A stretch of 56,189 nt of DNA from Acidobacteriota bacterium (GCA_003697015.1 RFGL01000092.1:1-56189); one strand, 5' to 3'; shown: positions 3,318-56,140, counted from the stretch's first letter. Program-made: numbers and translations. Notes: a model not told the origin generated them from the letters alone.

Positions 3318-4316
3318 ATGGAGCGTGCGATCGTCGACGACGCGAGGGAGATCTCGCCGCCGGTTTGGCGGCGGCTGGTGGGTACGGCGGGGGGCGTCTT
3401 TCTCGGCGGCGTCTTGCTGATCGCGGCCTGGGCGAAGATGCTCGATCCGCAGGCCTTCGCCCGCACCATCGCGGCCGAAGGGCTGGACTTCCTGCTGCCG
3501 GCCGGGGCGGTGGCGCTGATCGCGCTGGCGATCGAGGTCGCCCTCGGCGGCGCGCTGGTCCTGGGCCTGCGCCGTCCCTGGGTGCTGTGGCCGAGCGCTG
3601 CGCTGGTGGTCTTCTTCCTCTTCCTCACCGGCCGCGCCTACTGGCGGTTCGCCCACGGGGAGCTGCCCGCCGACGCCGGCTGCGGTTGCTTCGGCAACCT
3701 GGTGGAGCGGACGCCGGCCGAGGCCTTCTGGCAGGATCTGCTGCTGATGGTGCCGGCCCTCGCTCTCGCTTTCGCCGGCCGCGGCGACGGCGGGCGCCGG
3801 CCGCGCCTGCGGCTGGCTCTGGTCGGGGTGGCGACCGCCGCCGCCCTCGTCTTCGCCTGGCGGGCTCCCGAGCTGCCGATCGACGATCTCGCCACCCGTC
3901 TCAAGAAGGGGGTGGCGGCGGCCGAGCTCTGCGCCGGCAGCGCCGAGGACGGCACCGAGGTCTGTCTCGACCGCATCGTGCCCGAGCTGGCCCAGGGGGA
4001 GCACCTGGTGGTGATCAGCGAGCTCGATGAGGAGGAATTCCTCGCTCGGGTGGAGGCGATGAACGACTATGTGTGGAATGGCGGCGAGCCCCCCCTGTGG
4101 GTGATCAGCGCGGCGGACGAGGAGACCCGCTTCGGCTTCCGCTTCTCCCACGCGCCGCGCTTCGAGGTGCGCGAGGCGCCGGCGCCTCTGCTGCGCCCCC
4201 TCTACCGCACCCTGCCGCGCAGCTTCCGGGTGCGCGACGGCGTGGTGGTCGAGACCTACCGCGGCCTGCCGCCGCCTTTCGCTGCCGCGGTGGCGGACGG
4301 CGCGGGATCCTTGTAA
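3318..4316 (+). CDS. MauE/DoxX-family membrane protein with C-terminal soluble domain
   Basis: Several hydrophobic helices, AAWAKMLDP motif and the CGCFG motif typical of MauE. Start uncertain (3297 or 3318). Confidence 0.75.
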   Translation: MERAIVDDAREISPPVWRRLVGTAGGVFLGGVLLIAAWAKMLDPQAFARTIAAEGLDFLLPAGAVALIALAIEVALGGALVLGLRRPWVLWPSAALVVFFLFLTGRAYWRFAHGELPADAGCGCFGNLVERTPAEAFWQDLLLMVPALALAFAGRGDGGRRPRLRLALVGVATAAALVFAWRAPELPIDDLATRLKKGVAAAELCAGSAEDGTEVCLDRIVPELAQGEHLVVISELDEEEFLARVEAMNDYVWNGGEPPLWVISAADEETRFGFRFSHAPRFEVREAPAPLLRPLYRTLPRSFRVRDGVVVETYRGLPPPFAAAVADGAGSL

Positions 4317-19863: not shown

Positions 19864-22800
19864 ATGGTGGATCCCGAACGCGCTCAGCGCGCCCGCGAGA
19901 TCGCCGCCAAGGCGTTGGGGCGCGAGCCTGCCCAGCAACGGCGCCTGATCGACCTGGCCTGTGCCGGCGAGCCGGAGCTGCGACGTGAGGTCGAGGCGTT
20001 GATCGCCGAGCGCCTGCCGCTGGCAGAGCAGCCGACCCGGGCGGTGGCCTGGCGCCACCGGCCGCGGCGGGTGGGACGCTACGAGATCCTGCATCAGATC
20101 GGCCAGGGCGGCATGGGGGTGGTCTATCGCGCCCGCGATCCGCGCCTCGACCGCGAGGTGGCGATCAAGATGCTGCCGCCGACCGAGCTCGACGCCGCCA
20201 GCGAGGAGCGCTTCCAGCGCGAGGCGCGGATCGTCGCCGCCATGGACCACCCGGCGATCGTGCCGATCCACGACCTCGGCCGCCACCAGGGCTCGATCTA
20301 CTTCGTCATGCCCCTGGTCACCGGCACCACCCTGCGCCAGCTGATCGGCGAGGGCTCCCTCGAGCTGGCGGAGATCCTCGAGATCGGCGCCCAGGTGGCG
20401 GAGGCCCTCGACTACAGCCACGGCCGTGGCGTCGTCCACCGGGACGTCAAGCCCGCCAACGTGATGGTGACCCGCGAGGAGGGAATGCTGCGGGCGCGGG
20501 TGATGGATTTCGGCGTCGCCCATACCGCCAGCGCCGAACGGCCGCTGACCCGCACCGGCGACATCGTCGGCACCTTGACCTACGTCAGCCCGGAGCAGAT
20601 CGACCGGCCGGAAGTGGTCGACGGCCGCGCCGACCTCTACGCCCTGGGAGCGGTGCTCTACGAATGCCTGACCGGCCGTCCGCCCTTCACCGGTACGGTG
20701 CAGGTGCTGATCAACCGCATCCTGCACCAGGAGCCGGTCTCCCTGCGGGTCCACGGGGTGAGCGTCGATCGCGAGCTCGACGATCTGATCCTCGGCTGTC
20801 TGGCCAAAGATCCGTCGGCGCGGCCGGCGCGCGGCAAGGAGCTCGCCGCCGGCCTGCGCCAATGCGCCGCACGGCTGGCATCCGGCGACCGCGTCGTCCC
20901 GCGGCTGGACGCCGTTCCGCGGGTCAGCGCCGAGCCGCCGCCGCCACTGCCCCTGGTCGGCCGCGAGGTGGAGCTGCGCCGGCTGCGCGAGCAACTCGCC
21001 GCCGCTCTCGCCGGCGAGTGCCAGCTGACCCTGATCGGCGGCGAGGCGGGGATGGGCAAGAGCCGCTTGTTGGACGAGGCGCTGCGCCTGGCTCGGACCC
21101 ACGGCGCCCGGGTGCTGTGCGGCCGATTCTCCAGCCGCGACAGCACCTTCCCCTTCCAGGGCCTGTGCGAGCTGATCCAGGACGCCTTTCGGCGCGATCC
21201 GAAAACCGGCACCGGCCGCGGCGGGGATCTCGACGTCGACCTCAGCGACCTGGCCCCGGGCCTGCTCGCCCTCTTCCCGGTGCTGTCGGAGATCGAGGAG
21301 ATACGGCGCGCCGGCGACGCCGCCGCGGTTCCCGCTCCGGCGCCGCGGGCGGTGGACGATCCGACGGCGGTCTTCGAGCTTCTGGCGCGCACCTTCGGAC
21401 GCCTCGCTGGCGGCCGCCCGCTGGTGCTGGCGCTGGAGAACCTGCACGCCTGCGACGTGTCGATCGATGCGCTGCAATACGCCGTCCACCGCTTGGGGCC
21501 GACGCCGACGTGGGTGCTCGGCACCTACCGCCACACCGAGATCGAACACGGCCACCCCCTGCGCCGGCTGCTGCGCGACTTCAGCGACGATCCGCGTTGC
21601 AGGCACCTGCTGCTCGAACCCTTGTCCCAGCCCGCCCTGCGCCAGTTGATCGCCCAGCAGGTCGGCGGCCAGAGCCTGCGCGACGACCTGGTGGCGCGGC
21701 TCTACGAGGCCACCGAAGGCAACCCTTTCTTCACCCGCGAGCTCCTCGCTTCGCTGATCGAGTCGGGGGGCATCCAGCGCGACCGAAGCGGCAGCTGGTC
21801 CCTCCTGCGCGAGCCCGGCGCCCTCGCCGACGCCCTGCCGGTTTCCATCCACCAGGCGGTTGAGCAACGCCTGGAGCGCCTGGCGCCGGAGCTGCAGCGG
21901 GTGCTGGCGGTGGCCGCGGTCCTCGGTCGCAGCTTCGACTATCAGGACCTGGAAGCGCTGCTGGGGGAGACCGACGAGCTCGAAGAGACGATCGACGCGC
22001 TGGTGCGCCAGGGCATCCTGGAGGAGGAGCGCAAGACCCGTGGCGACCGGCTGCGTTTCGTCAGCGGCATCGTCCGCGACATCCTCTACGCCGGCATTCC
22101 CCGCCGCCGGCGGCGCGCTCTCCACCGGCGGCATGCGCGACGGCTCGAGAGCCGCTACCGCGGCCGCGAGGAACGCGTCTACGCCCAGCTGGTCCACCAC
22201 TTCTCCGAGGGCGACGTGCCCGAACGGACGGTGACCTACGCCCGCAAGCTGGCCCGCGCCGCCCTCGAGGCCTGCTGCTACGAAGACGCCCTGCGGGTCA
22301 GCCGCACCGCCCTCGAGTTCGTCGACGAGGAAGAGGTGGTCAACGCCGCCACCGTCGAGGGCGATCTGCGCCAGATCCGCGCCGTGGCCCAGCGCGCTCT
22401 CGGCCACGTCAGCCGGGCACTGCGCGAGGCGGAACGAGCCGCCGAGATCCTGGCGCGGGTCGAGCTCTGGGAGCCGGCGGCCCGGGCCGCCCTGCTCGCC
22501 GCCGAGACCGCCTGGCAGGGGCGCCAGGTGGAGCGCGCCAGGCGCTGGATCGAGCTCGGCTGCGAGCAGGCGCGGCGCGGTGCCGCCGGCGACGCCCTGA
22601 AACGACTGCTGACCCTGGGGGCGACGGTGGCGAACCTCGGGGGCGACCACCGCCAGGCGCAAGCGCTGCTGGCGGAGGCCGAGGCGCTGGCTCCCCCGTC
22701 CACCGTTCCGGCGGACGAGCCCGTCGCCGCCGGCGGCACCCTGGTCACCGCCATGCCGCGCGCCATCTCCAGCCTCGATCCCAGCGACCTGGAAAGCGAC

Positions 22801-25680
22801 GAGGAGCTGGAGATCGCGGCGATCCTCTTCGATACCCTGCTGGCGGCGGACGAGGAGGGCAACCCCGTGCCCCTCCTCTGCCGCCGCTGGCAGGCGGCGG
22901 AGGATGGCCGTACCTTCATCCTCAAGCTGCGTCCCGACGTCCGCTTCTCCGACGGCACGCCGCTCACCGCCGGGGTGGTCAAGGCTTCCCTCGAACGCGC
23001 CGCCGGGCGCCGTCGCGATCCCCCGGCGGCCTTCCACACCCTGGTCGGCTACGACGCCTTCGTCGGCGGCTCGGCGCCGGAGATCGAGGGCATCGAGGCC
23101 CCCGCCGACGACGAGTTGCGCTTTCGTCTGAGCGAGCCCTTGCCCCTCTTCCCGGCTCTCTTGACCGCGCCGACCACCGCCATCGTCCGCCCGCGCAGCG
23201 AAGCGCAAGGGGGTGGGTTGGCCGGCACCGGCCCCTTCCGCCTGGCGCGGCGCGAGGAACGGCGCATCCTGTTGGAACGCAACCCGGCGGATTGGCGCGA
23301 GGCCAAGCCCCACCTCGAGGGCATCGAGGTGCGAACCTTCTCCGAGGCCCTCGACATCGCCAGCGGCCTGCGCGCCGGCACCATCGACGTGGCGCGGGAC
23401 CTTCTGCCCGAGGACCTCGAATCCTTGCTGCGGGATCCGCGCTGGCGTGCCGGCCTGGTCGAGGCGACGCGCAAGAACGTCTACTTCGTACTGCTCAACA
23501 CCGCCGGTCCCAGCGCGCGCCAGCTCGCCCTGCGCCGCGCCCTGGCCGGGGTCGTGCGGGTACGCGACCTGGTGTGGCGGACCCTGGGTCGCTTCGCCCG
23601 GCCGGCGGTGAGCCTGATCCCCCCCGGCGTCCTCGGCCACGATCCCGGGCGTCGCCGGCCGGTCCTCAGCCGGCAGCAGGCGCGCGAGCTGCTCGCCGGC
23701 GCCGGCCTCGAGCCGCCGATCCGCGTCCGCGCCGCCATCCATCCCCTGCTGCAGGATCGCTACGGTGGGCTGACCGCGGCACTGATCGACGAATGGGGGG
23801 CTCTCGGGGTCGAGGTCTATTTCGAGATGACGACCAGCGAGAGCTTCCACCGGGCCTACCACGACAACGCCGACGTCGATCTCCTGATCGGTCGCTGGAC
23901 CGCCGAGTACGACGATCCCGACTGCTTCACCTACGGCCTCTTCCACTCCACCGGCGGCCGCTTGCGGCGCTACTTCGCCTCCCCCGACAGCGATCGACTG
24001 CTCGAACGGGCGCGCCAGGAACGCGAGGCGATGGCGCGGGCCTGGCTCTACCAGCGCTGGGAACGCCAGCTCGACGAGGCGGCGGTGCTCCTGCCGCTCT
24101 TCCACGACGTCAACTACCGCCTGGCCCACCCCGGGGTGCGCGGGCTGGCGCTCCACAACCGGCCGCCCTACGTCAGCTACGAGACCATCTCCAAGGTGGC
24201 GGCGGACGGCGCGGCCGCCCAGCCGCCGCCGGCCCGGGGCGAGATCCACGTTCCCCTGGCGGTCAAGCTCGCCAGCCTCGATCCGCTGGCCGAAGGGCCG
24301 GTCGAGCGCTACGAAGCCGTCGCCAACGTCTTCGAGACCCTCACCCGCATCGACGAAGGGGCGCGGGTGGTTCCGGCCCTGGCGACCGCCGTCGAGCCCC
24401 TGCCAGGCGGCCGCGGCTACCGCCTGGTGCTCGCTCCGGAGGCCCGTTTTCACGACGGCAGGCCATGCACCGCGCGCGACGTCCGCCATACCTTCGAGCG
24501 CCTGCTGCGCTCGGCCCGTCGCAGCCTCCACCACCTGCTGCTGCCGATCTGCGGGGCCCGCGCGTTGCGCGACGGCAAGGCGGCCGAGCTCGCCGGCCTG
24601 CGCATCCACTCCCAGACCGAGCTGTCGATCGAGCTCGACCGGCCGCTGGCGCTCTTCCCAGCGCTCTTGAGCCACCCTGCTTTGGCGATCGTGCCCGAGG
24701 GGGAAACCTGCTTCGACGGCGATTGGCGTGCCGGTTGCGCCGGCACCGGTCCCTTCCGGGTGGTGCGGTTTACTCCCGGGGAGCGCCTCGACCTGGAGCG
24801 CAATCCCGACTACCGGCACCGCGATCTGCCGAAGAGCGAGCGCCTGGTCTTCCACCTCGGCCTGCCTTCGGAACGCATCCGCCGCGAGCTCGCCGCCGGC
24901 CGCCTGTCCCTCGCCGCCGACCTGAACGCCGCGGACGTCGAGGCGTTGCGGCGGGAGGCCCGTTTCGCCGGCGGTTACCGCGAATCGCCCCGCCTGTCGA
25001 CCTACCTGCTGGCCTTCAATACCCGTCGCGGTCCGTTCGCCGACGCCGGCGCCCGCCGCTCCCTGGCCTGGCAGCTCGACCTCGACGAGGTGCTCGCCGG
25101 CGCCGCCGGCCAGCTGGCGAGCCGCGCTCACGGCATCATCCCGCCGGGACTTCTCGGCCACGAGCCGCCGCGCCGTCCGGTGGTGGCCGCAGCACCCTCC
25201 GGTGGCGTCGCCGGCGAGCTGCGCGTCGCGGCCCTGGTCGATCCCGCCTACGCCGGTTCGTATACCGAGCTCTGGACCACCATCTGCGGCCGCCTCGAAC
25301 AGTCCGGCATCGCCGTCGAGCCGCGCTTCGGCAGTCACCCGCAGGGCGACGTCGACCTCGCCTTCGTACGCTGGGTCGCGGCCTACCCCGATCCGGACAG
25401 CTTCGCCCAGGGGCTGTTGCACAGCGAGGAGGGGCTCTTGGGCGAGCTCTGCGGCTCCCCAGAGCTCGACCGCCTGATCGCCCGCGGCCGGGAGGAGGAA
25501 GATCCTTCCCTGCGCCATGCCCTCTACCGCGAAATGGAGGAGCTCGTCGCCCGCGAGCTGCTGCTCATCCCCCTCTTCCACGAACAGACCTACCGCTTCT
25601 GCCAGCCCACCCTGCACGGCCTGCGTTTCGCCCTTACCATCCCCGAAGTGCGTTATGAAGAACTCGAGCTGGCGTCGTGA
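19864..25680 (+). CDS. Ser/Thr kinase - P-loop NTPase (STAND/AAA_16-like) - helical/TPR region - two tandem family-5 (Opp/Dpp-like) solute-binding domains
   Basis: GQGGMGVVY, HRDVKPAN, DFG, SPEQ; Walker A GEAGMGKS; GNPFF; SBP5-like segments from GGTLVTAMPRAISSLDP (about 22730, with FSDGTPLTA and GTGPF) and GEIHVPLAVKLASLDP (about 24240, with FHDGRPCTA and GTGPF). Confidence 0.88.
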   Translation: MVDPERAQRAREIAAKALGREPAQQRRLIDLACAGEPELRREVEALIAERLPLAEQPTRAVAWRHRPRRVGRYEILHQIGQGGMGVVYRARDPRLDREVAIKMLPPTELDAASEERFQREARIVAAMDHPAIVPIHDLGRHQGSIYFVMPLVTGTTLRQLIGEGSLELAEILEIGAQVAEALDYSHGRGVVHRDVKPANVMVTREEGMLRARVMDFGVAHTASAERPLTRTGDIVGTLTYVSPEQIDRPEVVDGRADLYALGAVLYECLTGRPPFTGTVQVLINRILHQEPVSLRVHGVSVDRELDDLILGCLAKDPSARPARGKELAAGLRQCAARLASGDRVVPRLDAVPRVSAEPPPPLPLVGREVELRRLREQLAAALAGECQLTLIGGEAGMGKSRLLDEALRLARTHGARVLCGRFSSRDSTFPFQGLCELIQDAFRRDPKTGTGRGGDLDVDLSDLAPGLLALFPVLSEIEEIRRAGDAAAVPAPAPRAVDDPTAVFELLARTFGRLAGGRPLVLALENLHACDVSIDALQYAVHRLGPTPTWVLGTYRHTEIEHGHPLRRLLRDFSDDPRCRHLLLEPLSQPALRQLIAQQVGGQSLRDDLVARLYEATEGNPFFTRELLASLIESGGIQRDRSGSWSLLREPGALADALPVSIHQAVEQRLERLAPELQRVLAVAAVLGRSFDYQDLEALLGETDELEETIDALVRQGILEEERKTRGDRLRFVSGIVRDILYAGIPRRRRRALHRRHARRLESRYRGREERVYAQLVHHFSEGDVPERTVTYARKLARAALEACCYEDALRVSRTALEFVDEEEVVNAATVEGDLRQIRAVAQRALGHVSRALREAERAAEILARVELWEPAARAALLAAETAWQGRQVERARRWIELGCEQARRGAAGDALKRLLTLGATVANLGGDHRQAQALLAEAEALAPPSTVPADEPVAAGGTLVTAMPRAISSLDPSDLESDEELEIAAILFDTLLAADEEGNPVPLLCRRWQAAEDGRTFILKLRPDVRFSDGTPLTAGVVKASLERAAGRRRDPPAAFHTLVGYDAFVGGSAPEIEGIEAPADDELRFRLSEPLPLFPALLTAPTTAIVRPRSEAQGGGLAGTGPFRLARREERRILLERNPADWREAKPHLEGIEVRTFSEALDIASGLRAGTIDVARDLLPEDLESLLRDPRWRAGLVEATRKNVYFVLLNTAGPSARQLALRRALAGVVRVRDLVWRTLGRFARPAVSLIPPGVLGHDPGRRRPVLSRQQARELLAGAGLEPPIRVRAAIHPLLQDRYGGLTAALIDEWGALGVEVYFEMTTSESFHRAYHDNADVDLLIGRWTAEYDDPDCFTYGLFHSTGGRLRRYFASPDSDRLLERARQEREAMARAWLYQRWERQLDEAAVLLPLFHDVNYRLAHPGVRGLALHNRPPYVSYETISKVAADGAAAQPPPARGEIHVPLAVKLASLDPLAEGPVERYEAVANVFETLTRIDEGARVVPALATAVEPLPGGRGYRLVLAPEARFHDGRPCTARDVRHTFERLLRSARRSLHHLLLPICGARALRDGKAAELAGLRIHSQTELSIELDRPLALFPALLSHPALAIVPEGETCFDGDWRAGCAGTGPFRVVRFTPGERLDLERNPDYRHRDLPKSERLVFHLGLPSERIRRELAAGRLSLAADLNAADVEALRREARFAGGYRESPRLSTYLLAFNTRRGPFADAGARRSLAWQLDLDEVLAGAAGQLASRAHGIIPPGLLGHEPPRRPVVAAAPSGGVAGELRVAALVDPAYAGSYTELWTTICGRLEQSGIAVEPRFGSHPQGDVDLAFVRWVAAYPDPDSFAQGLLHSEEGLLGELCGSPELDRLIARGREEEDPSLRHALYREMEELVARELLLIPLFHEQTYRFCQPTLHGLRFALTIPEVRYEELELAS

Positions 25681-25714
25681 CAAGGTGCCGTGACAAGGTG
25701 CCACCCTTTTTTTC
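25677..25714 (+). repeat. Left copy of the core motif (AGGTGCCACCCTTTTTTTC, 25696-25714) with a 13-bp tandem duplication GTGACAAGGTGCC
   Basis: Read directly. The duplication (25677-25689 and 25690-25702) includes the kinase stop codon. Confidence 0.85.
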
Positions 25715-25946
25715 AAAGTTGATCCTTCGTGGGGGCGAGAACAACGCGATCGGCAGCTTCGAGGTCCGCGAAGCGGTCCCGAGCAGTCTCGCTTGACCTC
25801 GGGCGGGCCCCTTGGAACGTGGCTGCCGGTTGACGAGGCCGATACCGGGCGCACGACGACGGTTTCGGCTCCGATAGGGGGAACCGGCGGCATGGTTCGG
25901 TTCGGTCGTCGGTTGGCGGATCGCTGGCCACGGAGGCCGGCTCGCC

Positions 25947-26882
25947 TCAAGGGGCGCGGATCGGCCCCGCACGTACGAATGGCTGACCGGGTGGGAAGCA
26001 GCCTTCAGGGAAGCGTACGTCGCGCTCGCCGGCGCGAAGTCGTGCAGATGCTTCGCGAAAGGCGGCGACGAAATCCGAGTAGGCTCGGCGTAAGAGTCTC
26101 AAGCTCTCGCCGCGGGCGTGAAAGTCCGGGGCCGGTGACCGGCTCAAGACCTCAGGCCGCGCATGGGGATCCTGAGCAGCGATGGCCCTCGCACCAAGAA
26201 CGGCTGTGCCGCGCTGGCGACGGTCGTCTGCGGCTTCCTGCTCAATGGTCGAAACCAGGTCAGCGACGCGTTGCCGATAGTTCTTGACCGGCAGGTGACG
26301 CCAGCAGGGCAGGGGGTCGAAAACCAGCATTTCCGGGGTGGCGTGGGCGTATGGATCGTCGTCCCGGCCACGCTGGCGGGCCTGGCATTCGGCGGTGCGA
26401 TCGAACCAGAAGCCGGTAAGGGGCCGCCCCTCGACCAGCGCCGCGGCACAATGCACGCCCGGCCAGTCGTAGGGACTTCGGACAAGGCCTTCTTTGGTGC
26501 CTTGAGACAGCACATACTTCAACCGGCGCACCTGGGTAGCTTCGTCTTGACTGACGACCACGCCGTCGTAGCGCCGGGCCCAGATCTTGTCCGACCAGCC
26601 GTGCAGCCGTCGCACTTCTTTGGCCAGCTTCGCGTTGAAGTACGCCATGAAGCGCGCCAGGCGCTCAGCGTCCTCCACCCAGGCCAGCAGGTGGTAGTGG
26701 TTCGACAGCACCGCGACCCCGCATACCGCGATCGGGTACTTGCGCTGCGCTCGCGCCAGAGCGCCGATCACGGTTTCGTTGAGCTCGCGGCTCGGCCGCA
26801 GCAGAAGGCGGCCCTGGATGGTCCGGGAGGTGATCTCCACCAGGGCGCCGCCAGGGGGGATGTAGCGTAGTTTCCTCGCCAT
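25947..26882 (-). mobile_element. HUH Y1 tyrosine transposase, REP-associated (RAYT)-like
   Basis: MARKLR...EITSRT, VLSNHYHLL (HUH), IWARRY, LKYV (candidate catalytic Tyr), DWPG, C-terminal FPEGCFPP. Lower GC than its neighbours. Confidence 0.85.
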
Positions 26883-27017
26883 AACACCCTATAGAAGACG
26901 ACCTCGCCCTCAACTTCTTCGGCGCCGCCGCGATTTCTGGTGAAGTGGCGAAGAGACGGGGCATTGGGGAAGGAGGGAAGCTGGCGAGTATTATGGGCCC
27001 GCGACATAAATTACGGA

Positions 27018-27214
27018 GCCACCTCTAGGTGGCCGATAAAAAGGGTGGCACTTGCCATGGGTCACCTTCCATGGGCACCTCCCGTGGGGGGTAAGAAGGG
27101 TGGGACCTGTGGGGGCCCGTAGGGCAGGCCATCCGTAGGGGATAAAAAGGGTGGCACCTGTGGGTGGCACCTGTGGGTGGGGATAAAAAGGGTGGCACCT
27201 GTGGGCGGCACCTG
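27018..27214 (+). repeat. Repeat cluster: hairpin GCCACCT-CT-AGGTGGC followed by 4 GATAAAAAGGGTGGCACCTG-like copies and 2 partial TGGG(T/C)GGCACCTG stutters
   Basis: Copies at 27035, 27091, 27141 and 27182; partials at 27161 and 27202. All are inverted relative to the 25696 copy. Confidence 0.9.
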
Positions 27215-27262
27215 GGGGCAGCGCCCTTGGGCAGGGCGATCCAGGGTATGCTGGGGAGAGCG

Positions 27263-30200
27263 ATGATCAAGGCCCCGGATGACGGCGACCCTGCGGGCAG
27301 CGCGCTGGCCGGCAGGAAGGAGGTTTCGCGACGGCACGGTCGCAGCCTCGCCCCCCTGGCCTGGGTGATGCTGCTGCTGGTGGTGCCGAGCCTGATCTAC
27401 GTCTTTTACGTCCTCGATCAGATCCGGGCGCTGACGGAGGGCAATCTGCGTCTCCTCGGGCGGGCCGCAACCCGCCTTGAAGCGGTTCTCGACAACGCCG
27501 CGACGACGGTGAAGAACCGTGCTCTGGACCTGCGCTTCGCCTGTGACTTCGTCGACCGCCAGCCTTACCTCACCCTGGTCGAACCCGGTCGCTGTGAGAC
27601 GTTGCAGCGCTACGGGCCGGCAGAGGTTGAGATCGAGACCCGCTACGACGCCGGCCGGGGCAGGCTCCTGCTCACCGCTGTGCCGCAGGGGGACGCCGGG
27701 TGGGAAGGCTTTTCGTTCGCCGTCGAGCTCGAACGGATCCTGCACGAGGTGCCGCTGGCGGATCACTTCGACCTCCTGCTCCTCGCCGACCGCCGGGGCG
27801 ACGTGGTGGTGCAGGTGGCGGGGGACGGCGCCGCGGGCCACGGTCTGCGCATCACCCGCATCGACAAGCTCCCAATGGTCCGCGGTGGGGAGGAGCCGCT
27901 GGCGTTTGCCGCCGTTCAACGGGCGAGCCTGGAGCGCTCGGTAGAGCTCTTCGACCGCGATCACAGGCTCTTTTGCCAGCCCTTGGCGGTGCGTGGCGGC
28001 GCGGCCGGCGCTTGGGCGTTGTGCGGCCTGGTGCGCTCCGGCGACACCTTCCAGCAGGCCCTGGTGGTCTCTCCCATCCTCACCCTGATCTTGATCCTAT
28101 TGCTGATCTTCGGCCTCCTGACCTGGCCGTTCATCAAGCTCTTCTCCCTCGACCGCCGCGAGCGCTTCCGCTTTGCCGACGGCTTCCTCCTCCTCTTCTG
28201 CACCTTCGTGTTGCTTCTGCTCCTCACTCTACTGACCTCCGAGTGGGATAGCGGCAAGCGTCTGCACGAGGCCACCGAGACGAGCCTCGAGGTGCTGGCT
28301 GCCGAGCTCGAAGAGGATCTGCTCGCTGAGCTCAACCGGCTCTACGACCAGGTGGTGGCCTTCGATCGGCATCTGTGCGCGCAGCGGATGGAGCTCGACG
28401 TCTGCGGCCTCAAGGAGGACGCCAACCTGCTCGATCCGAAGAGGCCGCCGGCTGCGTTTCGCCTGCCACGACCGGCGATCGAGGACTTCAGCTCGGTATT
28501 CTGGATGCGACCTTGCGACGGCTTGCAGATCGCCAAGGCGACGGTGCGCAGCAAGAACACGCCGGCGGTCCGGCTGGGGCACCGCGAGTACTTTCGCACC
28601 CTCGCCGAGGGCCGGTCTTGGAGGGTCGGCTCGCCCCCGGACGAGGAGCGCCGGTTCTTCGTCCAGGCGTTCCGCTCGGTGACCACCGGCGAGCGCGGTG
28701 CGGCCTTGTCCATCCGTTCCTGCCTGAGCGATCCCGGCGGCGTCGCCGAGCTGACCAAAGGAGAGGACTGCCGCCTGCCCCCCTGTCGATCGGCCGGCGT
28801 GGTGGTTGCCGCGATCAGCGCCCCCTTGGCTTCGGTCGACCGCGTCCTGACGGGACCGGACTTCGGCTTCGCCATCGTCGAGCCGGGAGGCGGGGTGCTC
28901 TTCCACAGCGATCGGCGGCGGGCGCTGGACGAGAATCTGCTGCTGGAGGTCGACGATTCCAAGCGCTTGAACGCAGCGCTGTCGGCGCGGATCCCGCGCT
29001 CCTTGCGCATGCGGTATCACGGGCGCCCGCATCTTCTCCACGCGGCGCCGCTGCGCGATCTGCCGTGGTCGGTGGTCACCTTCGTCGACCGCGAGCTGCT
29101 GCGGACGACGAGCATCGAGGCCCTCGCCCTGAGCCTGGTGCTGGCCGCCGCGTATCTGGTACCGCTGCTGCTCGGATCGATCGCCTTCGCCCTGATCGCC
29201 GGCCGCGAAGCGAGCTGGCTGTGGCCGGATCCCGCCAAAGAGCGGCTCTATCGCCATCTGAGTTGGATCTTCGCTCAGCTGCTCCTGGCCTTTACCCTGG
29301 CGCTCTACGCCCTGCCGGCGGAGAGCGCGCTGTTGGCGGCGTTCACCATGCCTTTGATGGCGGCGCTCATCGCCTGGTTGCGGCTCATGGCGTGGAAGCT
29401 TCGCCACCGCCGCAATGCGACTCTCTGGCGCGCGTTGGACCTCTTTTCGGTACCGTTGCTCCTGCTGCTCCTGATTCTCGGCCTGGTCGCCCTCAAGCTG
29501 GCGAATCTGTCGTTGTCCTGGCGCGATCCGTGGTTGGTCGGTCCCTTCGTCGGCATGCTGATCCTCACCGCGCTCTACCTGCTGATCCACGGCTGGCGCG
29601 ACTTCAGCCGGCCGTGGCGCTACCGGGTCAACTGGCTCGCCTGGCATTGCACGGCGATCGTCCTTTTTTGGCTGCTGCTGGCGGTGTGGCCGGCGGTCGG
29701 CTTCTTCAAGATCGCCTTCGTCAGCCAGCAGCGGGTGTTGGTCAAGCACGAGAACCTGCACCGCGCCGAGGGCGTCCGCCAGCTGGCGTGTGCGCTCGAA
29801 GACGAGCTGCGCGACGTCGCCATGCCGGATCGCGACGCGAGTCTGAACCGGCGTCTCGCGGCAGCGCGCCACCGCCATCGCCCCCACATGCTGGCGGCGC
29901 TTCACCCGGGCGGCGATCCGCCGGAGGTTTCCGACGTCGGCAGCTGGTTCGATCGAGGGCTGCGCGATCTCCTGGCGCGCTATCAGCCGCTCTACAACCG
30001 CACCACCGAGAGCCAGCGCTACCTGCTGGGGACCCGAGCAGCCGACGGAGCCTGGGAATGGCGTGGAGGCTTGGAGGGGGGCGGCGACGGCGCCATGCGT
30101 TTTCACGCTCGAGCCGGCCCCTGCCAGCGCCGGGACCTCTCCCTGGTCTCCGTTCTGCCGGTCCCCGGCCACCGGCTGACCTGGCGACTGGCAGCGGGCG

Positions 30201-31333
30201 GGGCGATCTTGATCCTGCTCCTCGCCGCCTGGGTCCGCTACTCCGCTCGACGGCTCTTCTTCGCCGCCGTCGAGGGGCAGGTGGAGCGCCTCGGGGTGGC
30301 GCAATTGGTGCGTGGCGAGCTGCCGGTCAACACCATCGCGCTCCTCGCATCCCCTCGTGACCGGCAGCTGCTGGTGGCGTCGAAGAACTACGACGTGGTC
30401 GACCTCGAGCGGCCCGTGGCCCGCGCCCAGTGGCTGGGCGGGCTCGACCACGAGGACCGCAAGCCGGTGGTCTGCGAGCATTTCGAAGACGGTCTGGCGG
30501 ACGCGGGGGTGCGGCGATTCAAGCTCGAGGTGCTGGAAAGCCTGGTCTACGCCGAGCATCGCCGGGTGCTGATCCTGTCCACCGTCGATCCCTATGAAGC
30601 GCTGCTGCGCTTCCACCACGGGGCCGGACCGGAAGCCGCCGGCGGCGCGGGGGACGACCTGGGCGACGACGAGGCCGGGCGCTGGAGTCGTCTTCTCAGT
30701 CACTTCGTGCTCAAGCCGGTGGGGCTCGACCGGCAATCCGCCGGCGCCGAGGAGGGCGATTCTCACGACGGTGAGACGTCCCTCAGCGTTCGGGTGGAGC
30801 GCGAGCTGGGGGCCACGGTCCACCTGCGGCGCTTGGTGCAGAGTGACCTGGCGAGCTTTGACAACCTGAGCCAGCGGGAGCTTCTGGAGCGGATCGTCGA
30901 CGCCGCGGAAGGCTACTACTGGGCGCTGTGGAACGCCTGTTCGGAGGACGAGAAACTGGTGCTGGTGCAGCTGGCGCAAGAGACCTTCGTCAATCCGAAG
31001 CAGCACAGCACCGTGCGGCGGTTGCTCCAGCGCGGTCTGATCGTGCGCGATCCGGTCCTGCGTTTGATGAACGATAGCTTCACACTCTTCGTCCATCGCA
31101 TCCAGCAGCCCAAGGAGGTAGCGCGCTGGGAACGCTCGCTGCGCGGTCTGGGCTGGAAGCAGCTGCGCCTCGCCTTCATCGCTCTGCTGGCGGTGGTGGC
31201 CCTCTTCCTTTTCTCCACCCAGCGCGGCTTGTTCGACGCCACCATCGGCTACGTCTCCGCCCTGGCGGTCGGCATCCCCGGCCTGATCCAGCTGCTGCGC
31301 ACGCTCTATGCCGCCGGCCGCACCGGCGGTTGA
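27263..31333 (+). CDS. Large multi-pass membrane protein with Cache-like extracytoplasmic domains and a C-terminal degenerate NTPase/winged-helix-like region
   Basis: GGGGAG RBS before ATG at 27263, many TM segments, HREYF, FAIVEPGGGVLFHSD, LPWSVVTF (Cache-like), C-terminal YYWALWNACSEDEK...LLQRGLI. Confidence 0.7.
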   Translation: MIKAPDDGDPAGSALAGRKEVSRRHGRSLAPLAWVMLLLVVPSLIYVFYVLDQIRALTEGNLRLLGRAATRLEAVLDNAATTVKNRALDLRFACDFVDRQPYLTLVEPGRCETLQRYGPAEVEIETRYDAGRGRLLLTAVPQGDAGWEGFSFAVELERILHEVPLADHFDLLLLADRRGDVVVQVAGDGAAGHGLRITRIDKLPMVRGGEEPLAFAAVQRASLERSVELFDRDHRLFCQPLAVRGGAAGAWALCGLVRSGDTFQQALVVSPILTLILILLLIFGLLTWPFIKLFSLDRRERFRFADGFLLLFCTFVLLLLLTLLTSEWDSGKRLHEATETSLEVLAAELEEDLLAELNRLYDQVVAFDRHLCAQRMELDVCGLKEDANLLDPKRPPAAFRLPRPAIEDFSSVFWMRPCDGLQIAKATVRSKNTPAVRLGHREYFRTLAEGRSWRVGSPPDEERRFFVQAFRSVTTGERGAALSIRSCLSDPGGVAELTKGEDCRLPPCRSAGVVVAAISAPLASVDRVLTGPDFGFAIVEPGGGVLFHSDRRRALDENLLLEVDDSKRLNAALSARIPRSLRMRYHGRPHLLHAAPLRDLPWSVVTFVDRELLRTTSIEALALSLVLAAAYLVPLLLGSIAFALIAGREASWLWPDPAKERLYRHLSWIFAQLLLAFTLALYALPAESALLAAFTMPLMAALIAWLRLMAWKLRHRRNATLWRALDLFSVPLLLLLLILGLVALKLANLSLSWRDPWLVGPFVGMLILTALYLLIHGWRDFSRPWRYRVNWLAWHCTAIVLFWLLLAVWPAVGFFKIAFVSQQRVLVKHENLHRAEGVRQLACALEDELRDVAMPDRDASLNRRLAAARHRHRPHMLAALHPGGDPPEVSDVGSWFDRGLRDLLARYQPLYNRTTESQRYLLGTRAADGAWEWRGGLEGGGDGAMRFHARAGPCQRRDLSLVSVLPVPGHRLTWRLAAGGAILILLLAAWVRYSARRLFFAAVEGQVERLGVAQLVRGELPVNTIALLASPRDRQLLVASKNYDVVDLERPVARAQWLGGLDHEDRKPVVCEHFEDGLADAGVRRFKLEVLESLVYAEHRRVLILSTVDPYEALLRFHHGAGPEAAGGAGDDLGDDEAGRWSRLLSHFVLKPVGLDRQSAGAEEGDSHDGETSLSVRVERELGATVHLRRLVQSDLASFDNLSQRELLERIVDAAEGYYWALWNACSEDEKLVLVQLAQETFVNPKQHSTVRRLLQRGLIVRDPVLRLMNDSFTLFVHRIQQPKEVARWERSLRGLGWKQLRLAFIALLAVVALFLFSTQRGLFDATIGYVSALAVGIPGLIQLLRTLYAAGRTGG

Positions 31334-31356: not shown

Positions 31357-32310
31357 ATGCGCGCGCTCTACCTCGGGCCGGAAGGGTTGGTGGTCCGCCG
31401 GGATCATCCGCGTCCCGCGCCTCGGGAGGGCGAGGCCTTGATCCGTTTGCTGCGGGCGGGGATCTGTTCGACCGACCTGGAGCTGGTCAAGGGCTATGCC
31501 GGCTTTCACGGGGTCTTGGGGCACGAATTCGTCGGGGTGGTGGAAGAACCAACCGGGGGCGACTGGGCCGGCAAGCGGGTGGTGGGGACCATCAACCTCG
31601 GCTGCCGGCGCTGCCCCACCTGCATCGGCGACGGGCCGGAGCACTGTCCCGAGCGTACGGTGCTGGGCATCGCCGGCCACGACGGTGCGTTCGCCGACTA
31701 CCTCACCCTGCCCGTGGCCAATCTCCTGGTCGTGCCGGACGAGGTCGACGACGACGTCGCCGTCTTCACCGAGCCGCTGGCCGCGGCGCTGCGCATCCGC
31801 GACCAGGTGGCGGTCGAGCCTTCGGCGCGGCTGGCGGTGGTGGGGCCGGGGCGACTGGGGCTGCTGATCGCCCAGGTCCTGGCCTTGACCGGCAGTCGGC
31901 TGGTAGTCCTCGGCCGCCGCGCCGCCTCCCTCGAGCTGCCGCGGCAGCTGGGATTGCAGGTCGGCCTGAGCACCGAGGCTCCGGCCGACGCCTTCGATCT
32001 GGTGGTCGAGGCGACCGGCAACGAGGCCGGCCTCGCCGAGTCCCTGCGCCTGGTGCGGCCGTGCGGCACCCTGATCCTGAAGAGCACCTTCCACGGCGCG
32101 GCGACCGTCGACCTGACCAAGCTGGTGGTCGGCGAGGTGCGGATCGTCGGCTCGCGCTGCGGTCCATTCGCTCCCGCCCTGCGCCTGCTGGCGTCAGGGT
32201 CCGTCGCCGTGCGGCCGCTGATCGACGGTCGCTATCCCTTGGAGCGCGGGCTCGAGGCCATGGCCCACGCCGCCCGCCCCGGGGTGCGTAAGATCCTGCT
32301 CGACCCCTGA
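31357..32310 (+). CDS. Zinc-binding medium-chain alcohol dehydrogenase family protein
   Basis: GICSTD, GHEFVG, CRRCPTC...C, EPLAAA, GPGRLG. Confidence 0.92.
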   Translation: MRALYLGPEGLVVRRDHPRPAPREGEALIRLLRAGICSTDLELVKGYAGFHGVLGHEFVGVVEEPTGGDWAGKRVVGTINLGCRRCPTCIGDGPEHCPERTVLGIAGHDGAFADYLTLPVANLLVVPDEVDDDVAVFTEPLAAALRIRDQVAVEPSARLAVVGPGRLGLLIAQVLALTGSRLVVLGRRAASLELPRQLGLQVGLSTEAPADAFDLVVEATGNEAGLAESLRLVRPCGTLILKSTFHGAATVDLTKLVVGEVRIVGSRCGPFAPALRLLASGSVAVRPLIDGRYPLERGLEAMAHAARPGVRKILLDP

Positions 32311-32320
32311 GAGGGGGCCC

Positions 32321-32530
32321 GAAAAAAAGGGTGGCACCTGCTCGGTCGCTGAAAAAAGGGTGGCACCTGTCCACCGCGCGGTCCGCGGTCGGCGGCGGAC
32401 CAGCAGCGGCTGGCCGAAAAAAGGGTGGCACCTGGATCGGTCGCCGGCCAGTCGCCGAAAAAAGGGTGGCACCTGGATCGGTCGCCGGCCAGTCGCCGAA
32501 AAAAAGGGTGGCACCTGGATCAGGTACCTG
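32321..32530 (+). repeat. Array of five GAAAAAA(A)GGGTGGCACCTG repeats with 10/46/22/22-nt spacers
   Basis: Copies at 32321, 32351, 32416, 32457 and 32498, then an ACCTGGATCAG stutter. Lies between convergent genes. Confidence 0.92.
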
Positions 32531-54609: not shown

Positions 54610-55644
54610 ATGCGACCCATGCTCAAGACGCTGGCACCCGCCTGGCACCTCGTGCTCGCGGTTGCCGTCGTGGTGCTCGCCTGGAGCCTGGCGGCAAGAA
54701 GCGCCGCCGACGGCGGGCAGCCGGAGGAGCCGGCGGCCAGCCCATCCGGCGCCGGCGGGCGGGCGCCGGTGCGGGAGCTCGGCGACGGCGTCGCGTCGCC
54801 GGCAGGCGGCGTGCGCCTTCCGGCCGGGCTGCTGCAACTGCCGCCGTCGGTCGACGCCGCCCTGGTGGTCGACCTGAGCCGCAACCGGATGTACGTCTAC
54901 AAGAACCACCGGCCGATCCCGCGGTTGGCCGCCGACCTCTACGTCTCGATCGGCAAGAACGGCAGTCACAAGGAGCGTGAGGGCGACGAAAAAACGCCGG
55001 TCGGGGTCTACTTCGTCACCGATTTCATCCCCGGCAGTCGCCTGCCCGAGCTCTACGGCGCCGGCGCTTTCCCGGTCGACTATCCCAACCTGTGGGATCG
55101 GCGGTTGGGTCGCACCGGCAGCGGCATCTGGATCCACGGCATGCCGGAAAGCATGATCACCCGTCCGCCGCGCTCCAGCCGCGGTTGCCTGACCCTGGCC
55201 AACGACGACTTCCGGGCCATCGCCAGATCGGTCGAGCCCGGCCGCACGCCGGTGGTGATCAGCGACCGCATCGAGTGGTTGTCGCCGGAAGCGATCGCCG
55301 TCCAGCGCAACGGCGTCCTGCGGGCGCAGGAAGCGTGGCGGCAGGCGTGGGAGAGCCTCGATACGGAACGCTACCTCTCCTTCTACGCCACCGACTTCCG
55401 CTCCGGCAACATGGACATCATCGCCTGGATTCGGCACAAGCGGCGGGTCAACGCGGCCAAGAGCTACATCCGCGTCGAGGTGTCGGATCTCGGCCTCTAC
55501 CGCTATCCCGGCGAAGACGACCTGGTGCTGCTCGACTTTCTCCAGACGTACCGCAGCAGCAACTACGACACCACCTCGCGCAAGCGCCAGCTCTGGCGGC
55601 TACGGCAGGGCCGCTGGCGAATCGTCCAAGAAGGGCGCGGCTGA
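54610..55644 (+). CDS. YkuD-family L,D-transpeptidase/carboxypeptidase with C-terminal NTF2-like domain (Csd6/Pgp2-like)
   Basis: EGDEKTPVGVY, YPNLWD, GSGIWIHG...SRGC catalytic motif, C-terminal WRQAWES...YLSFY...FLQTYRS. Confidence 0.88.
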   Translation: MRPMLKTLAPAWHLVLAVAVVVLAWSLAARSAADGGQPEEPAASPSGAGGRAPVRELGDGVASPAGGVRLPAGLLQLPPSVDAALVVDLSRNRMYVYKNHRPIPRLAADLYVSIGKNGSHKEREGDEKTPVGVYFVTDFIPGSRLPELYGAGAFPVDYPNLWDRRLGRTGSGIWIHGMPESMITRPPRSSRGCLTLANDDFRAIARSVEPGRTPVVISDRIEWLSPEAIAVQRNGVLRAQEAWRQAWESLDTERYLSFYATDFRSGNMDIIAWIRHKRRVNAAKSYIRVEVSDLGLYRYPGEDDLVLLDFLQTYRSSNYDTTSRKRQLWRLRQGRWRIVQEGRG

Positions 55645-55666: not shown

Positions 55667-56140
55667 AGGTCCCACCCTCTTCACAACTCCTTGCGGCTCA
55701 ATGAATTAGTGCTGCCCGTAAGGTGCCCCCCGGCCCGTGAGGTGCCCCTGAGGTTGCCCCTGACGTGGTTGCCCCGCCCCTGGCCCTGCCCCTGAGGTGC
55801 TGCCCCTGAGGTGCCACCCTCTTCGCTGCTGCCCCCTGAGGTGCCACCCTCTTCGCAAGTTGTTGCCCCCTTAGGTGCCCCTTAGGTGCGGTGCCCCTTA
55901 GGTGCTGCCCCCCTTAGGTGCCACCCTCTTCGCAAGTTGTTTCGAATGAGGTAGTTACTCGTGCTGGTTTGGATTGATTGTGACGTCAGACTTGACCGTA
56001 TGCCTCACGCCGTCCCTGCTGTGAGAGCCCAAGAGGTCCCCAAGGGTCGCGAGGTCTCCACTCCGAAGGTCCCACCCTCTTTGCGGCCACTCCCCATAAG
56101 GTCCCACCCTCTTCGCAACTCCTTACGCATCAACGAATTA
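55667..56140 (+). repeat. Cluster of six AGGT(G/C)CCACCCTCTT copies, many CCCCT(G/T)AGGTG stutters and three 25-bp imperfect palindromes
   Basis: Core at 55667, 55809, 55839, 55916, 56067 and 56099; same 12-mer as the transposase-flanking repeats. Confidence 0.9.

Follow-up and report, generated by a model that had tools for sequence, protein, structure and literature searches.

A Thermoanaerobaculia Y1 transposase gene bounded by short inverted repeats and its relation to gene-less repeat arrays in the same genome

When a transposase gene is flanked by a short repeat that also recurs far from it, it has to be asked whether gene and repeat form one mobile unit, and what the copies that stand alone represent. 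The question is raised by an acidobacterial stretch of 56,189 nucleotides (hereafter the window), contig C235 of a 500-contig, 5.34-Mb assembly (GCA_003697015.1; G+C 71.5%), in which a gene for a Y1/HUH tyrosine transposase (25947..26882, minus strand) lies between inverted copies of the motif AGGTSCCACCCT. A sequence-only reading of the window had taken gene and motif for an undescribed system related to RAYTs, the tyrosine transposases associated with repetitive extragenic palindromes (REPs), and the dispersed motif copies for its target repeats. Gene and repeat appear to belong together, a link that comparison of homologous loci supports well. The locus is probably a Y1 transposon resembling an insertion sequence (IS), with terminal inverted repeats (TIRs) of ~18 nt in the arrangement known as a TIRtron, of which the gene-less repeat loci are products or relics.

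Linkage of the gene with its flanking repeat

The window holds 15 exact matches to AGGTSCCACCCT, at 25696 on the plus strand, at 27097, 27148 and 27189 on the minus strand, at five sites between 32328 and 32516 (minus) and at six between 55667 and 56110 (plus); none occurred in 100 dinucleotide-preserving shuffles of the window (0 expected). As had been read from the sequence, the copies around the gene are inverted, with one on its 3′ side (25696, plus) and at least four on its 5′ side (27035-27200, minus). Genome-wide the motif is indeed a dispersed family, with 96 copies in 36 of the 500 contigs against none of the reversed pattern, and nine of the 96 lie inside called open reading frames (ORFs) under a crude, GC3-based gene mask that covers 68% of the genome. 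The intergenic placement noted earlier for the more distant clusters also holds, that at 32322-32516 lying between convergent ORFs that end at 32310 and 32533, and that at 55667-56110 following an ORF that ends at 55644; the copy at 25696 is 16 nt past the stop codon of ORF 19864..25680. The core is without a GTAG tag or hairpin, as had been said, but the window version is a near-palindrome, AGGTG-C-CACC, for which self-folding is not possible, and this feature is not conserved in relatives, most of which carry AGGTGCCAGCC. The whole terminal repeat measures ~18 nt and is represented here by AGGTGCCACCCTTTTT, a flanking 16-mer with 28 occurrences in the genome, the family consensus being AGGTGCCA-[GC][CG]C-GATT. 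No Rfam family reached gathering score anywhere in the window.

The evidence for linkage comes chiefly from homologues of the transposase. Loci were fetched for 151 of them, 143 with usable flanks, and exact GGTGCCA was searched within 500 bp of the gene. It was present upstream in forward orientation at 67/143 loci, downstream in reverse orientation at 81/143 and in both positions together at 43/143, compared with 21/143 (upstream, reverse), 17/143 (downstream, forward) and 3/143 (both) for the opposite orientations, which agrees with the expectation that homologues would carry a cognate flanking motif. An iterated weight matrix gave the consensus A-G-G-T-G-C-C-A-[G/C]-[C/G]-C-G-A-T-T, and sites of at least 15 bits at both ends were found at 66/143 loci versus 1/143 in the control orientation, a contrast that loses some of its force because the matrix was trained in the orientation scored and is thus inflated, the exact 7-mer count being the unbiased figure. 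The right repeat lies a median of 260 nt past the gene (interquartile range 249-274) and the left repeat ~55, 125, 170 or 260-290 nt before it, and the window copy fits. The variable triplet that follows AGGTGCCA is identical at both ends of 30 of the 66 loci versus 12.4 in shuffles (maximum 23 in 2000 shuffles), and it changes less often along the protein tree than when shuffled (left, 29 versus 38.9; right, 32 versus 40.1, shuffle minimum 34). Because some loci are near-duplicates and kin share labels, this pattern is read as inheritance with the element and not as proven co-adaptation.

Copies within single genomes point to a mobile unit with the repeats at its edges. In the complete genome G041, four copies with unrelated flanks share 88-94% identity over ~1.32-1.40 kb, the similarity beginning at (G)AGGTGCCACCCGATTTTC and stopping at ...GGGTGGCACCTC, and paralogous copies in relatives extend over ~1.0-1.5 kb at 80-99.9% identity. 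Boundaries were scored in 100 pairs of loci with at least 80% identity over 1-2 kb and unaligned flanks. Taking 15 nt as the maximum distance, 28 pairs had a forward repeat at the left boundary, 34 had a reverse repeat at the right boundary and 15 had both; in the non-matching pairs the alignment ended early in a divergent tail, or the locus had no weight-matrix site of 12 bits or more. With three pairs set aside whose repeat was more than 400 nt off, no alignment ran more than 21 nt beyond the nearest scored repeat. Target-site duplications of four or more nucleotides were found at the outer edges of 0/66 loci, and shorter direct repeats occurred about as expected (k=2, 7 versus 5.2; k=3, 1 versus 0.84). 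The inverted repeat itself stops at the A of AGGTGCC and has no outward extension. Judged by these sequence comparisons, the element is mobile in relatives. Logan contigs of the probable source sample, the only run holding the region, contain no alternative joints, a result that is neutral on mobility; two sister sequencing runs contain next to nothing of it.

Subterminal hairpins of the kind used in IS200 or REP systems were considered and rejected. The 70 nt from each end fold as shuffles do (mean z 0.13 and -0.09, 65 ends per side), with 0 and 4 ends of the respective sides below a z of -2.

The element and its transposase

The element spans 25696 to 27053-27200, or ~1.36-1.5 kb, and contains a single gene. 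Its outer end on the 3′ side of the gene is the terminal repeat AGGTGCCACCCTTTTTTTC at 25696..25714 (plus), which includes an exact motif, pairs as a 16-nt inverted repeat with the copies at 27.1-27.2 kb and lies ~240-256 bp past the transposase stop (family median ~260). Immediately outside it, at 25677..25695 (plus), the junction between flank and repeat is reiterated, GTGACAAGGTGCC (25677-25689) being directly legible a second time at 25690-25702. The first of these copies overlaps the TGA stop (25678-25680) of ORF 19864..25680, so that the duplicated 13-mer includes that stop. A Logan contig of run X1, the probable source sample, has one extra T after 25688, inside this reiteration.

Between the repeat and the gene is a non-coding 3′ tail (25715..25946, minus), conserved across the family in length (median and quartiles as for the right repeat) and not in sequence, family tails aligning only between close sub-lineages (42/2145 pairs). 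No similarity to homologue tails was found by blastn or tblastx. The G+C content at the three codon positions is 0.63/0.62/0.61 in family tails versus 0.69/0.49/0.77 in the gene, which marks the tail as non-coding, and a small ORF at 25713..25931 was rejected on the grounds that it is unconserved and that family tails have no codon-position bias. Folding tests against shuffles did not support a structured tail or leader, the folding energy of the tail equalling that of shuffles (z -0.59) and the leader and 5′ array showing no excess folding (window arrays, z -0.59 and +0.38).

On the other side of the gene, a 5′ leader (26883..27034, minus) contains the 16-bp palindrome GCCACCT-CT-AGGTGGC at 27018-27033, directly legible; the inverted repeat behind the short hairpin reported there earlier is thus real. 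No sigma-70-like promoter was scored at 25500-27400, and a sigma-54 or sigma-70 reading of the TGGCAC/TTCGCAA parts was rejected by eye on account of unfit spacing. The innermost 5′ terminal repeat is a variant copy at 27035..27053 (minus), AAGTGCCACCCTTTTTATC on the minus strand, which was recognized by the weight matrix and pairs as a 14-nt inverted repeat with 25698-25711. It is followed by an array of further terminal repeats in the same orientation (27054..27213, minus), with copies at 27090-27108, 27141-27159 and 27182-27200 and partial junction reiterations at 27054-27089, 27160-27172 and 27201-27213. The block that had been described at 27035-27214 does consist of motif copies, though their number needs restating as three exact, one variant (27035-27053) and several partial.

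Both neighbors of the element are long ORFs on the plus strand. The 1938-aa ORF at 19864-25680, on whose stop codon the element directly sits, appears by eye to combine a Ser/Thr kinase domain, an ATPase-like region and two halves resembling solute-binding proteins; its C-terminal 399 aa have homologues of 45-55% identity in frames of ~1,900-2,000 aa in three relatives (G002, G003, and G007). Directly downstream of the repeat array, 27249-31333 encodes a predicted multi-pass membrane protein of ~1,360 aa, the first 400 aa of which have no homologue in the five nearest genomes.

The transposase has 311 aa, with the HUH motif H62-Y-H64, a presumptive catalytic Tyr123 (KYVLSQG) and a C-terminal domain at aa ~145-305. 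It belongs to the Y1 HUH (TnpA-Y1) superfamily: its match to Pfam Y1_Tnp has E 2.2e-4 and 21.8 bits, just below the 23-bit cut-off, that to NCBIfam REP_Tyr_transpos has E 2.2e-12 and 47.1 bits against a cut-off of 80, and Pfam holds no family for it beyond the weak Y1_Tnp match. All 25 aligned members have H62, H64 (NH[YF]H) and Y123; around the tyrosine they read Y-x-L-x-[HQN]-G-x-K-E, NP being absent, and their C-terminal half contains the conserved blocks WPGVH, WFDRT, LPCW, SPAPxFHA and FPxGSFPP. The alignment profile finds, among sequences in the PDB, ISDra2 TnpA (E 5e-4) and the TnpA-REP protein 4er8 (E 6.5e-3).

Predicted structures lead in the same direction. An AlphaFold2 model of the protein (mean predicted local distance difference test, pLDDT, 83) has as its top Foldseek match in the PDB E. 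coli TnpA-REP (4er8_A; E 1e-4, template modelling score 0.59 on target), followed by ISDra2 and IS608 TnpA (2xma, 2xm3, 2ec2, and 2f4f; E 1e-4 to 1e-3), and these matches cover the N-terminal ~145 residues. The C-terminal 167 residues modelled alone gave a pLDDT of 90 and no match in the PDB (best E 1.3). The models thus suggest an N-terminal nuclease domain that is IS200/RAYT-like and a C-terminal domain that is family-specific. For the latter, 1677 cluster representatives were found at E<=1e-3. In the 150 best of these that were listed, its position is the same in the proteins of ~300-330 aa, and most of the others are shorter proteins. Look-alikes of this part in the ESM Atlas came only from clusters labelled Myxococcota (0.88-0.91), with low counts of shared features, and are leads only.

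Of 8000 candidates scored as homologues, 802 proteins have E<=1e-3. Identity is 52-71% for the best 120 of them, which are named "REP element-mobilizing transposase RayT", "transposase" or "hypothetical"; among the NCBI-sourced names listed the organism is always Thermoanaerobaculia bacterium. From a collection of species genomes 359 of 375 candidate stretches were confirmed, and the 80 loci kept are all from Thermoanaerobaculia or Acidobacteriota metagenome-assembled genomes (MAGs). Some match was present in 93 of 301 Acidobacteriota genomes (one, G108, unpublished), and within this set full-length matches are confined to the window's own order of Thermoanaerobaculia, genomes outside that order matching aa 1-141 of the N-terminus alone (E 1e-5 to 1e-19). 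The family is present in 47 of the 60 nearest relatives (48/61 counting the genome itself), in up to at least 37 scored matches per genome. In the present genome the gene is single-copy: other tblastn matches have E >2, and a profile search gives one match. Same-genus genomes contain only 52%-identical homologues.

A second, short Y1_Tnp gene is present in the genome at 3660-4007 (minus) of contig C254 (Pfam, 101 bits; motifs PDHVHLL, WQEGY, and YILNQEKHH). This gene is similar to subclass 1.2 of Quentin (2018), and its 3′ flank contains a direct repeat of its own, with 33 nt identical between both copies. It was discarded as a candidate mobilizer of the repeats, having none of the AGGTGCCA type beside it and looking like a member of that subclass.

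Gene-less repeat loci and their explanation

At a threshold of 12 bits the weight matrix scores 284 sites in the genome versus 62 in reversed sequence; for 170 of the 284 the score is 15 bits or more. They group into 149 clusters, of which 58 are multi-copy, and 56 of these 58 have a single orientation. The genome holds ~100-150 gene-less repeat loci, in which almost all arrays have one orientation. Units of the AGGTGCCA type fall into at least six sub-families in this genome, the AGGTSCCACCCT-type motif representing one of them; they are defined by the 6 nt after AGGTGCCA: CCCTTT (55 copies), a sharp unit of ~18 nt (type A) that is the type flanking the gene; CCCTCT (25 copies), which makes up the array at 55.7-56.1 kb; and GGGTCT (22), CCGTCT (14), GGGTAT (10), GGGACT (6) and GGGGCT (6). 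Most types other than CCCTTT continue as ...TTCGCAAG..., like the left ends of elements in relatives.

The window contains two gene-less arrays. That at 32322..32516 (minus) has five type-A units, its periodic part of 41-42 bp being made of ~23 nt of flank-like sequence and the 18-nt repeat. That at 55667..56110 (plus) has type-B units (AGGTSCCACCCTCTTCRCAA..., ~28-43 nt), with six exact cores and truncated copies, each unit preceded by reiterated flank, and reaches near the contig end. The reiteration is a recurrent junction scar that lies outside the unit and consists of a tandem copy of 5-8 nt from the end of the flank together with the opening 6-7 nt of the repeat; it is present at 63/164 genome sites versus 0.05 expected. 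In loci of homologues, a second occurrence of the core 5-mer, no more than 26 nt beyond the outermost repeat, was found at 27/81 left and 26/100 right ends, compared with 10/81 and 3/100 in inside controls. Because junction reiterations recur and one array has a period that includes ~23 nt of flank, the same-orientation arrays appear to result from repeated tandem duplication across the flank/repeat junction. Reiterated junctions can also be seen in the window at 25677-25702, 27160-27172, 27201-27213 and 55.70-55.93 kb.

Two other readings of the arrays were tried. GGTGCC can pair with GGTGCC through two wobble pairs, giving a stem that is followed by a T-run, and a partial copy, a full copy and a T-run together are terminator-like three times around the gene (versus 1.4 expected), namely at the 25677-25695 reiteration with its full copy and at the wobble hairpins 27212-27194 and 27171-27153 in the 5′ array. 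A terminator role was rejected, units being co-oriented with the neighboring gene in 21 cases and opposite in 20, a count that comes from crude gene calls and leaves many clusters without a called neighbor. Elsewhere in the genome, at C160:275-2160 and C413:3820-4790, type-B units in one orientation are spaced ~900-950 bp apart with short convergent ORFs between them, a cassette-like arrangement; an integron attC reading of the ~900-bp-spaced units of C160 was dropped by eye, as these units too have the AGGTGCCA end and reiterated junctions.

When genomes are compared, the 11-mer AGGTGCCASCC reaches or exceeds a 3-fold enrichment over its control in 21/48 genomes with the gene and in 1/13 without it (Fisher's test, p = 0.02, kin not being independent). 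The genome under study has the second-highest motif excess per gene copy of 61. The suggestion that genomes lacking the gene would not share the enrichment is borne out by 12 of these 13 and contradicted by the other, G004, a member of the same family.

Several of these results weigh against reading the locus as a mobile element from which the gene-less units derive. About half of the homologue loci have no recognizable pair of ends, 85/100 locus pairs have at least one boundary off any scored repeat, and related genomes and loci are not independent samples. For the present copy, whose own movement is presumed, no empty site was found, the right-hand gene having no homologue in the five nearest genomes and the left-hand homologues being only 45-55% identical. 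Gene copy number and motif excess are uncorrelated (Spearman 0.10, 61 genomes), and the 11-mer is not enriched in eight genomes that have 10 or more copies of the gene; in some of these lineages the core has diverged, to AGGTGCCGGGC or ACGTGCCGGGC for example. In the genome under study CCCTTT is the only sub-family with a cognate gene. G004 has 379 copies of the 11-mer versus eight of the control pattern, in the same unit-plus-reiteration anatomy and with many arrays such as ...CTCAGAAGGTGCCAGCCGAACCTCTGAG..., and has no detectable gene, a search with the family profile finding no Y1 protein homologue in an assembly that is 93% complete and in 640 contigs.

The gene-less units might have been mobilized in trans, might be relics, or might be targets that were there before the element; products or relics are favored because the ends co-vary with the element and 12 of 13 genomes without the gene lack enrichment, while the target model stays alive because of G004 and the absent correlation with copy number. 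On that model the AGGTGCCA units belong to the host, serving for instance as sites for protein binding or as terminator-like signals, and the Y1 element is a site-specific invader for which the motif is the target, much as IS1397 and ISPpu9 insert into or beside REPs. The size of the type-A gene-less unit, ~18-20 nt, is that of a binding site, and the terminator-like combinations around the gene are in keeping with it. Yet the variable part of the repeat is common to both ends above chance and tracks the protein tree, uninterrupted inverted pairs, as intact targets would be, were not found (of 58 multi-copy clusters, 56 are of single orientation), the orientation bias expected of terminators is missing from the crude gene calls, and in G004, with its many contigs, the gene may be unassembled. 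The explanation is improbable, and the target role that the sequence-only reading had assigned to the dispersed copies is not supported. That the proximity of gene and motif is coincidental, the repeat being unrelated to the Y1 protein, could be entertained from the window alone, in which one gene faces four motif loci of which two are far from it; with an orientation-specific association over 143 homologue loci and blocks of identity bounded by the repeats it is scarcely credible.

It is quite improbable, too, that the gene-less units are relics and nothing else, that is, solo ends that remained when a shrinking genome lost full-length elements of several sub-lineages, and that were amplified locally by slippage and are never mobilized by the surviving protein. 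In favor of this are the presence of at least six unit sub-families of which only CCCTTT has a gene, the conservation of several sub-families over 40-65 nt with the ...TTCGCAAG... continuation of left ends in relatives, and the contrast between this genome, with 5.3 Mb and one gene, and its same-genus relatives, with 6.5-7.7 Mb and 6 and at least 37 matches. On the other side, no gene fragments were found elsewhere in the genome by tblastn (no match below E = 2.3) or profile, the 55 type-A units have a sharp ~18-nt boundary unlike that of random deletions, and excision of the IS200/IS605 type, being seamless, would leave no solo end.

The reading of the locus as an IS-like Y1 transposon, with gene-less loci as its products or relics, leads to a provisional mechanism. 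Using the covalent-tyrosine chemistry known from IS200/IS605 and RAYT enzymes, the protein would nick and rejoin DNA either right at the AGGTGCC termini or a few bases inward of them, and hairpin recognition would be replaced by the additional C-terminal domain or by the two ends pairing with each other. Such elements would have given rise to the ~100-150 gene-less loci as non-autonomous products or as relics, and tandem duplication across the junction of flank and repeat would have enlarged these on the spot into arrays of one orientation. Cleavage may occur at the hot spot, after AGGTGC or AGGTGCC, at which the junction duplications end. A more specific proposal, unlikely as matters stand, is that of an undescribed mode of Y1/HUH transposition in which the new C-terminal domain recognizes non-hairpin ends, cleavage occurs 6-7 nt inside AGGTGCC, and aborted or one-ended reactions leave tandem flank-plus-end duplications that seed arrays; since two wobble pairs let GGTGCC pair with itself and a T-run comes after it, such arrays would create hairpin- or terminator-like modules that the host keeps, a REP-like domestication by another route.

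Y1/HUH transposases are understood through IS608 and ISDra2, which use hairpins in single-stranded DNA, and through the RAYT/REP systems; to our knowledge, the working of their TIR-associated relatives has never been examined. The present family offers a natural data set for this, with hundreds of copies, sharp ends, no target duplication or hairpins, an extra conserved domain, and a recurrent duplication scar that may mark the position of cleavage. Within one order it ranges from genomes with many autonomous copies, through one with a single gene and about a hundred gene-less loci, to one with hundreds of repeats and no detectable gene, the span one would predict if insertion sequences that began as selfish elements became REP-like fixtures of the genome. 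There is also a practical side: the repeats break assemblies, since 49/149 clusters lie within 500 bp of a contig end, and they confuse ORF calling in Thermoanaerobaculia MAGs.

Relation to known Y1 systems

Elements of the IS200/IS605 group have subterminal hairpins on one strand, no inverted repeats, a TnpA of ~130-150 aa and often tnpB. With IS608 and ISDra2 the present element has in common a homologous transposase core (PDB sequence matches, E 5e-4), the lack of target-site duplication and a multi-copy mobile unit with a single small gene, but its ends are inverted repeats without hairpins, it has neither tnpB nor a second coding region, the tail being free of codon bias, and its 311-aa protein has an extra domain of ~165 aa. 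REPs are imperfect palindromes of 20-40 nt that fold as hairpins and usually carry a GTAG tag, and RAYTs occur in about one copy per genome, are inherited vertically and have few near-identical duplicates; together with REP, BIME or REPIN repeats, RAYT/TnpA-REP genes reportedly make up the REPtron, a concept attributed to Nunvar in 2010, Bertels and Rainey in 2011 and Ton-Hoang in 2012. The Y1/HUH fold is shared with REPtrons, E. coli TnpA-REP (4er8) being the best structural match, and so are the single gene in this genome and an inverted, flanking short repeat that is over-represented in extragenic space. In contrast, the present repeat is not a hairpin-forming palindrome and has no GTAG or CGTC tag, its units are arrayed in one orientation instead of as inverted doublets, relatives carry many near-identical copies of the element, as with an IS, and the protein is about twice as long. 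Held against the criteria for classical RAYTs, for which Bertels (2017; PMC5581495) served as reference, the RAYT-type system with repeats of its own that had been proposed keeps its link between gene and motif and loses the RAYT assignment, the protein having no Y---NP and falling below the 80-bit cut-off of REP_Tyr_transpos, and the gene being multi-copy in relatives.

A closer counterpart has been named. According to Di Nocera (2013; PMC3733652), Y1 genes flanked by terminal inverted repeats that are not REPs are termed TIRYT, and the units TIRtrons; some of their repeats are dispersed as families of moderate abundance, in which units stand singly, as dimers or in clusters, and there is no strict correlation between the presence of a TIRYT gene and that of a repeat family. 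The same source describes a well-defined acidobacterial group (T. saanensis, K. versatilis, A. capsulatum, and G. mallensis) and a GGGGWSAS motif common to most described TIRYT repeats. The system at this locus is therefore not undescribed in kind, its category having been named already with an acidobacterial group included. Here, too, a Y1 gene is bounded by non-REP terminal inverted repeats and the repeat is dispersed (149 clusters, 58 multi-copy); to the acidobacterial group the present family could be compared by description only. It differs in that GGGGWSAS is absent from its ends, which start AGGTGCCA, in that the elements are clearly multi-copy in relatives, and in that the gene-less units form same-orientation arrays with junction reiterations.

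According to Quentin (2018; PMC6006769), 20 of 26 described TIRYTs fall in subclass 2.1, with Y---NP and a C-terminus resembling helix-turn-helix or DnaA_C domains, whereas the present protein has Y-x-L-x-[HQN]-G-x-K-E and a C-terminal domain without a Pfam or PDB match. Class 3 of the TnpA-Y1 proteins, described in the same text as an intermediate between IS and REPtron in Acidobacteria, with several genes and hundreds of repeats (~600 in Solibacter usitatus), is likewise acidobacterial and intermediate, but its size of ~178 aa, its NHVH, W[TA] and Y----Q motifs and its structured repeats with a CnGA foot are not seen in the present family. The family fits neither subclass 2.1 nor class 3 and appears to be an unclassified subclass. 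Full-text searches, whose coverage mostly excluded subscription journals and supplements, returned no description of it or of its motif. The general kind, a TIR-associated Y1 transposon, is already described and is distinct from classical RAYT/REP; what is new is the family, with its C-terminal domain, its AGGTGCCA ends and its junction-duplicated arrays.

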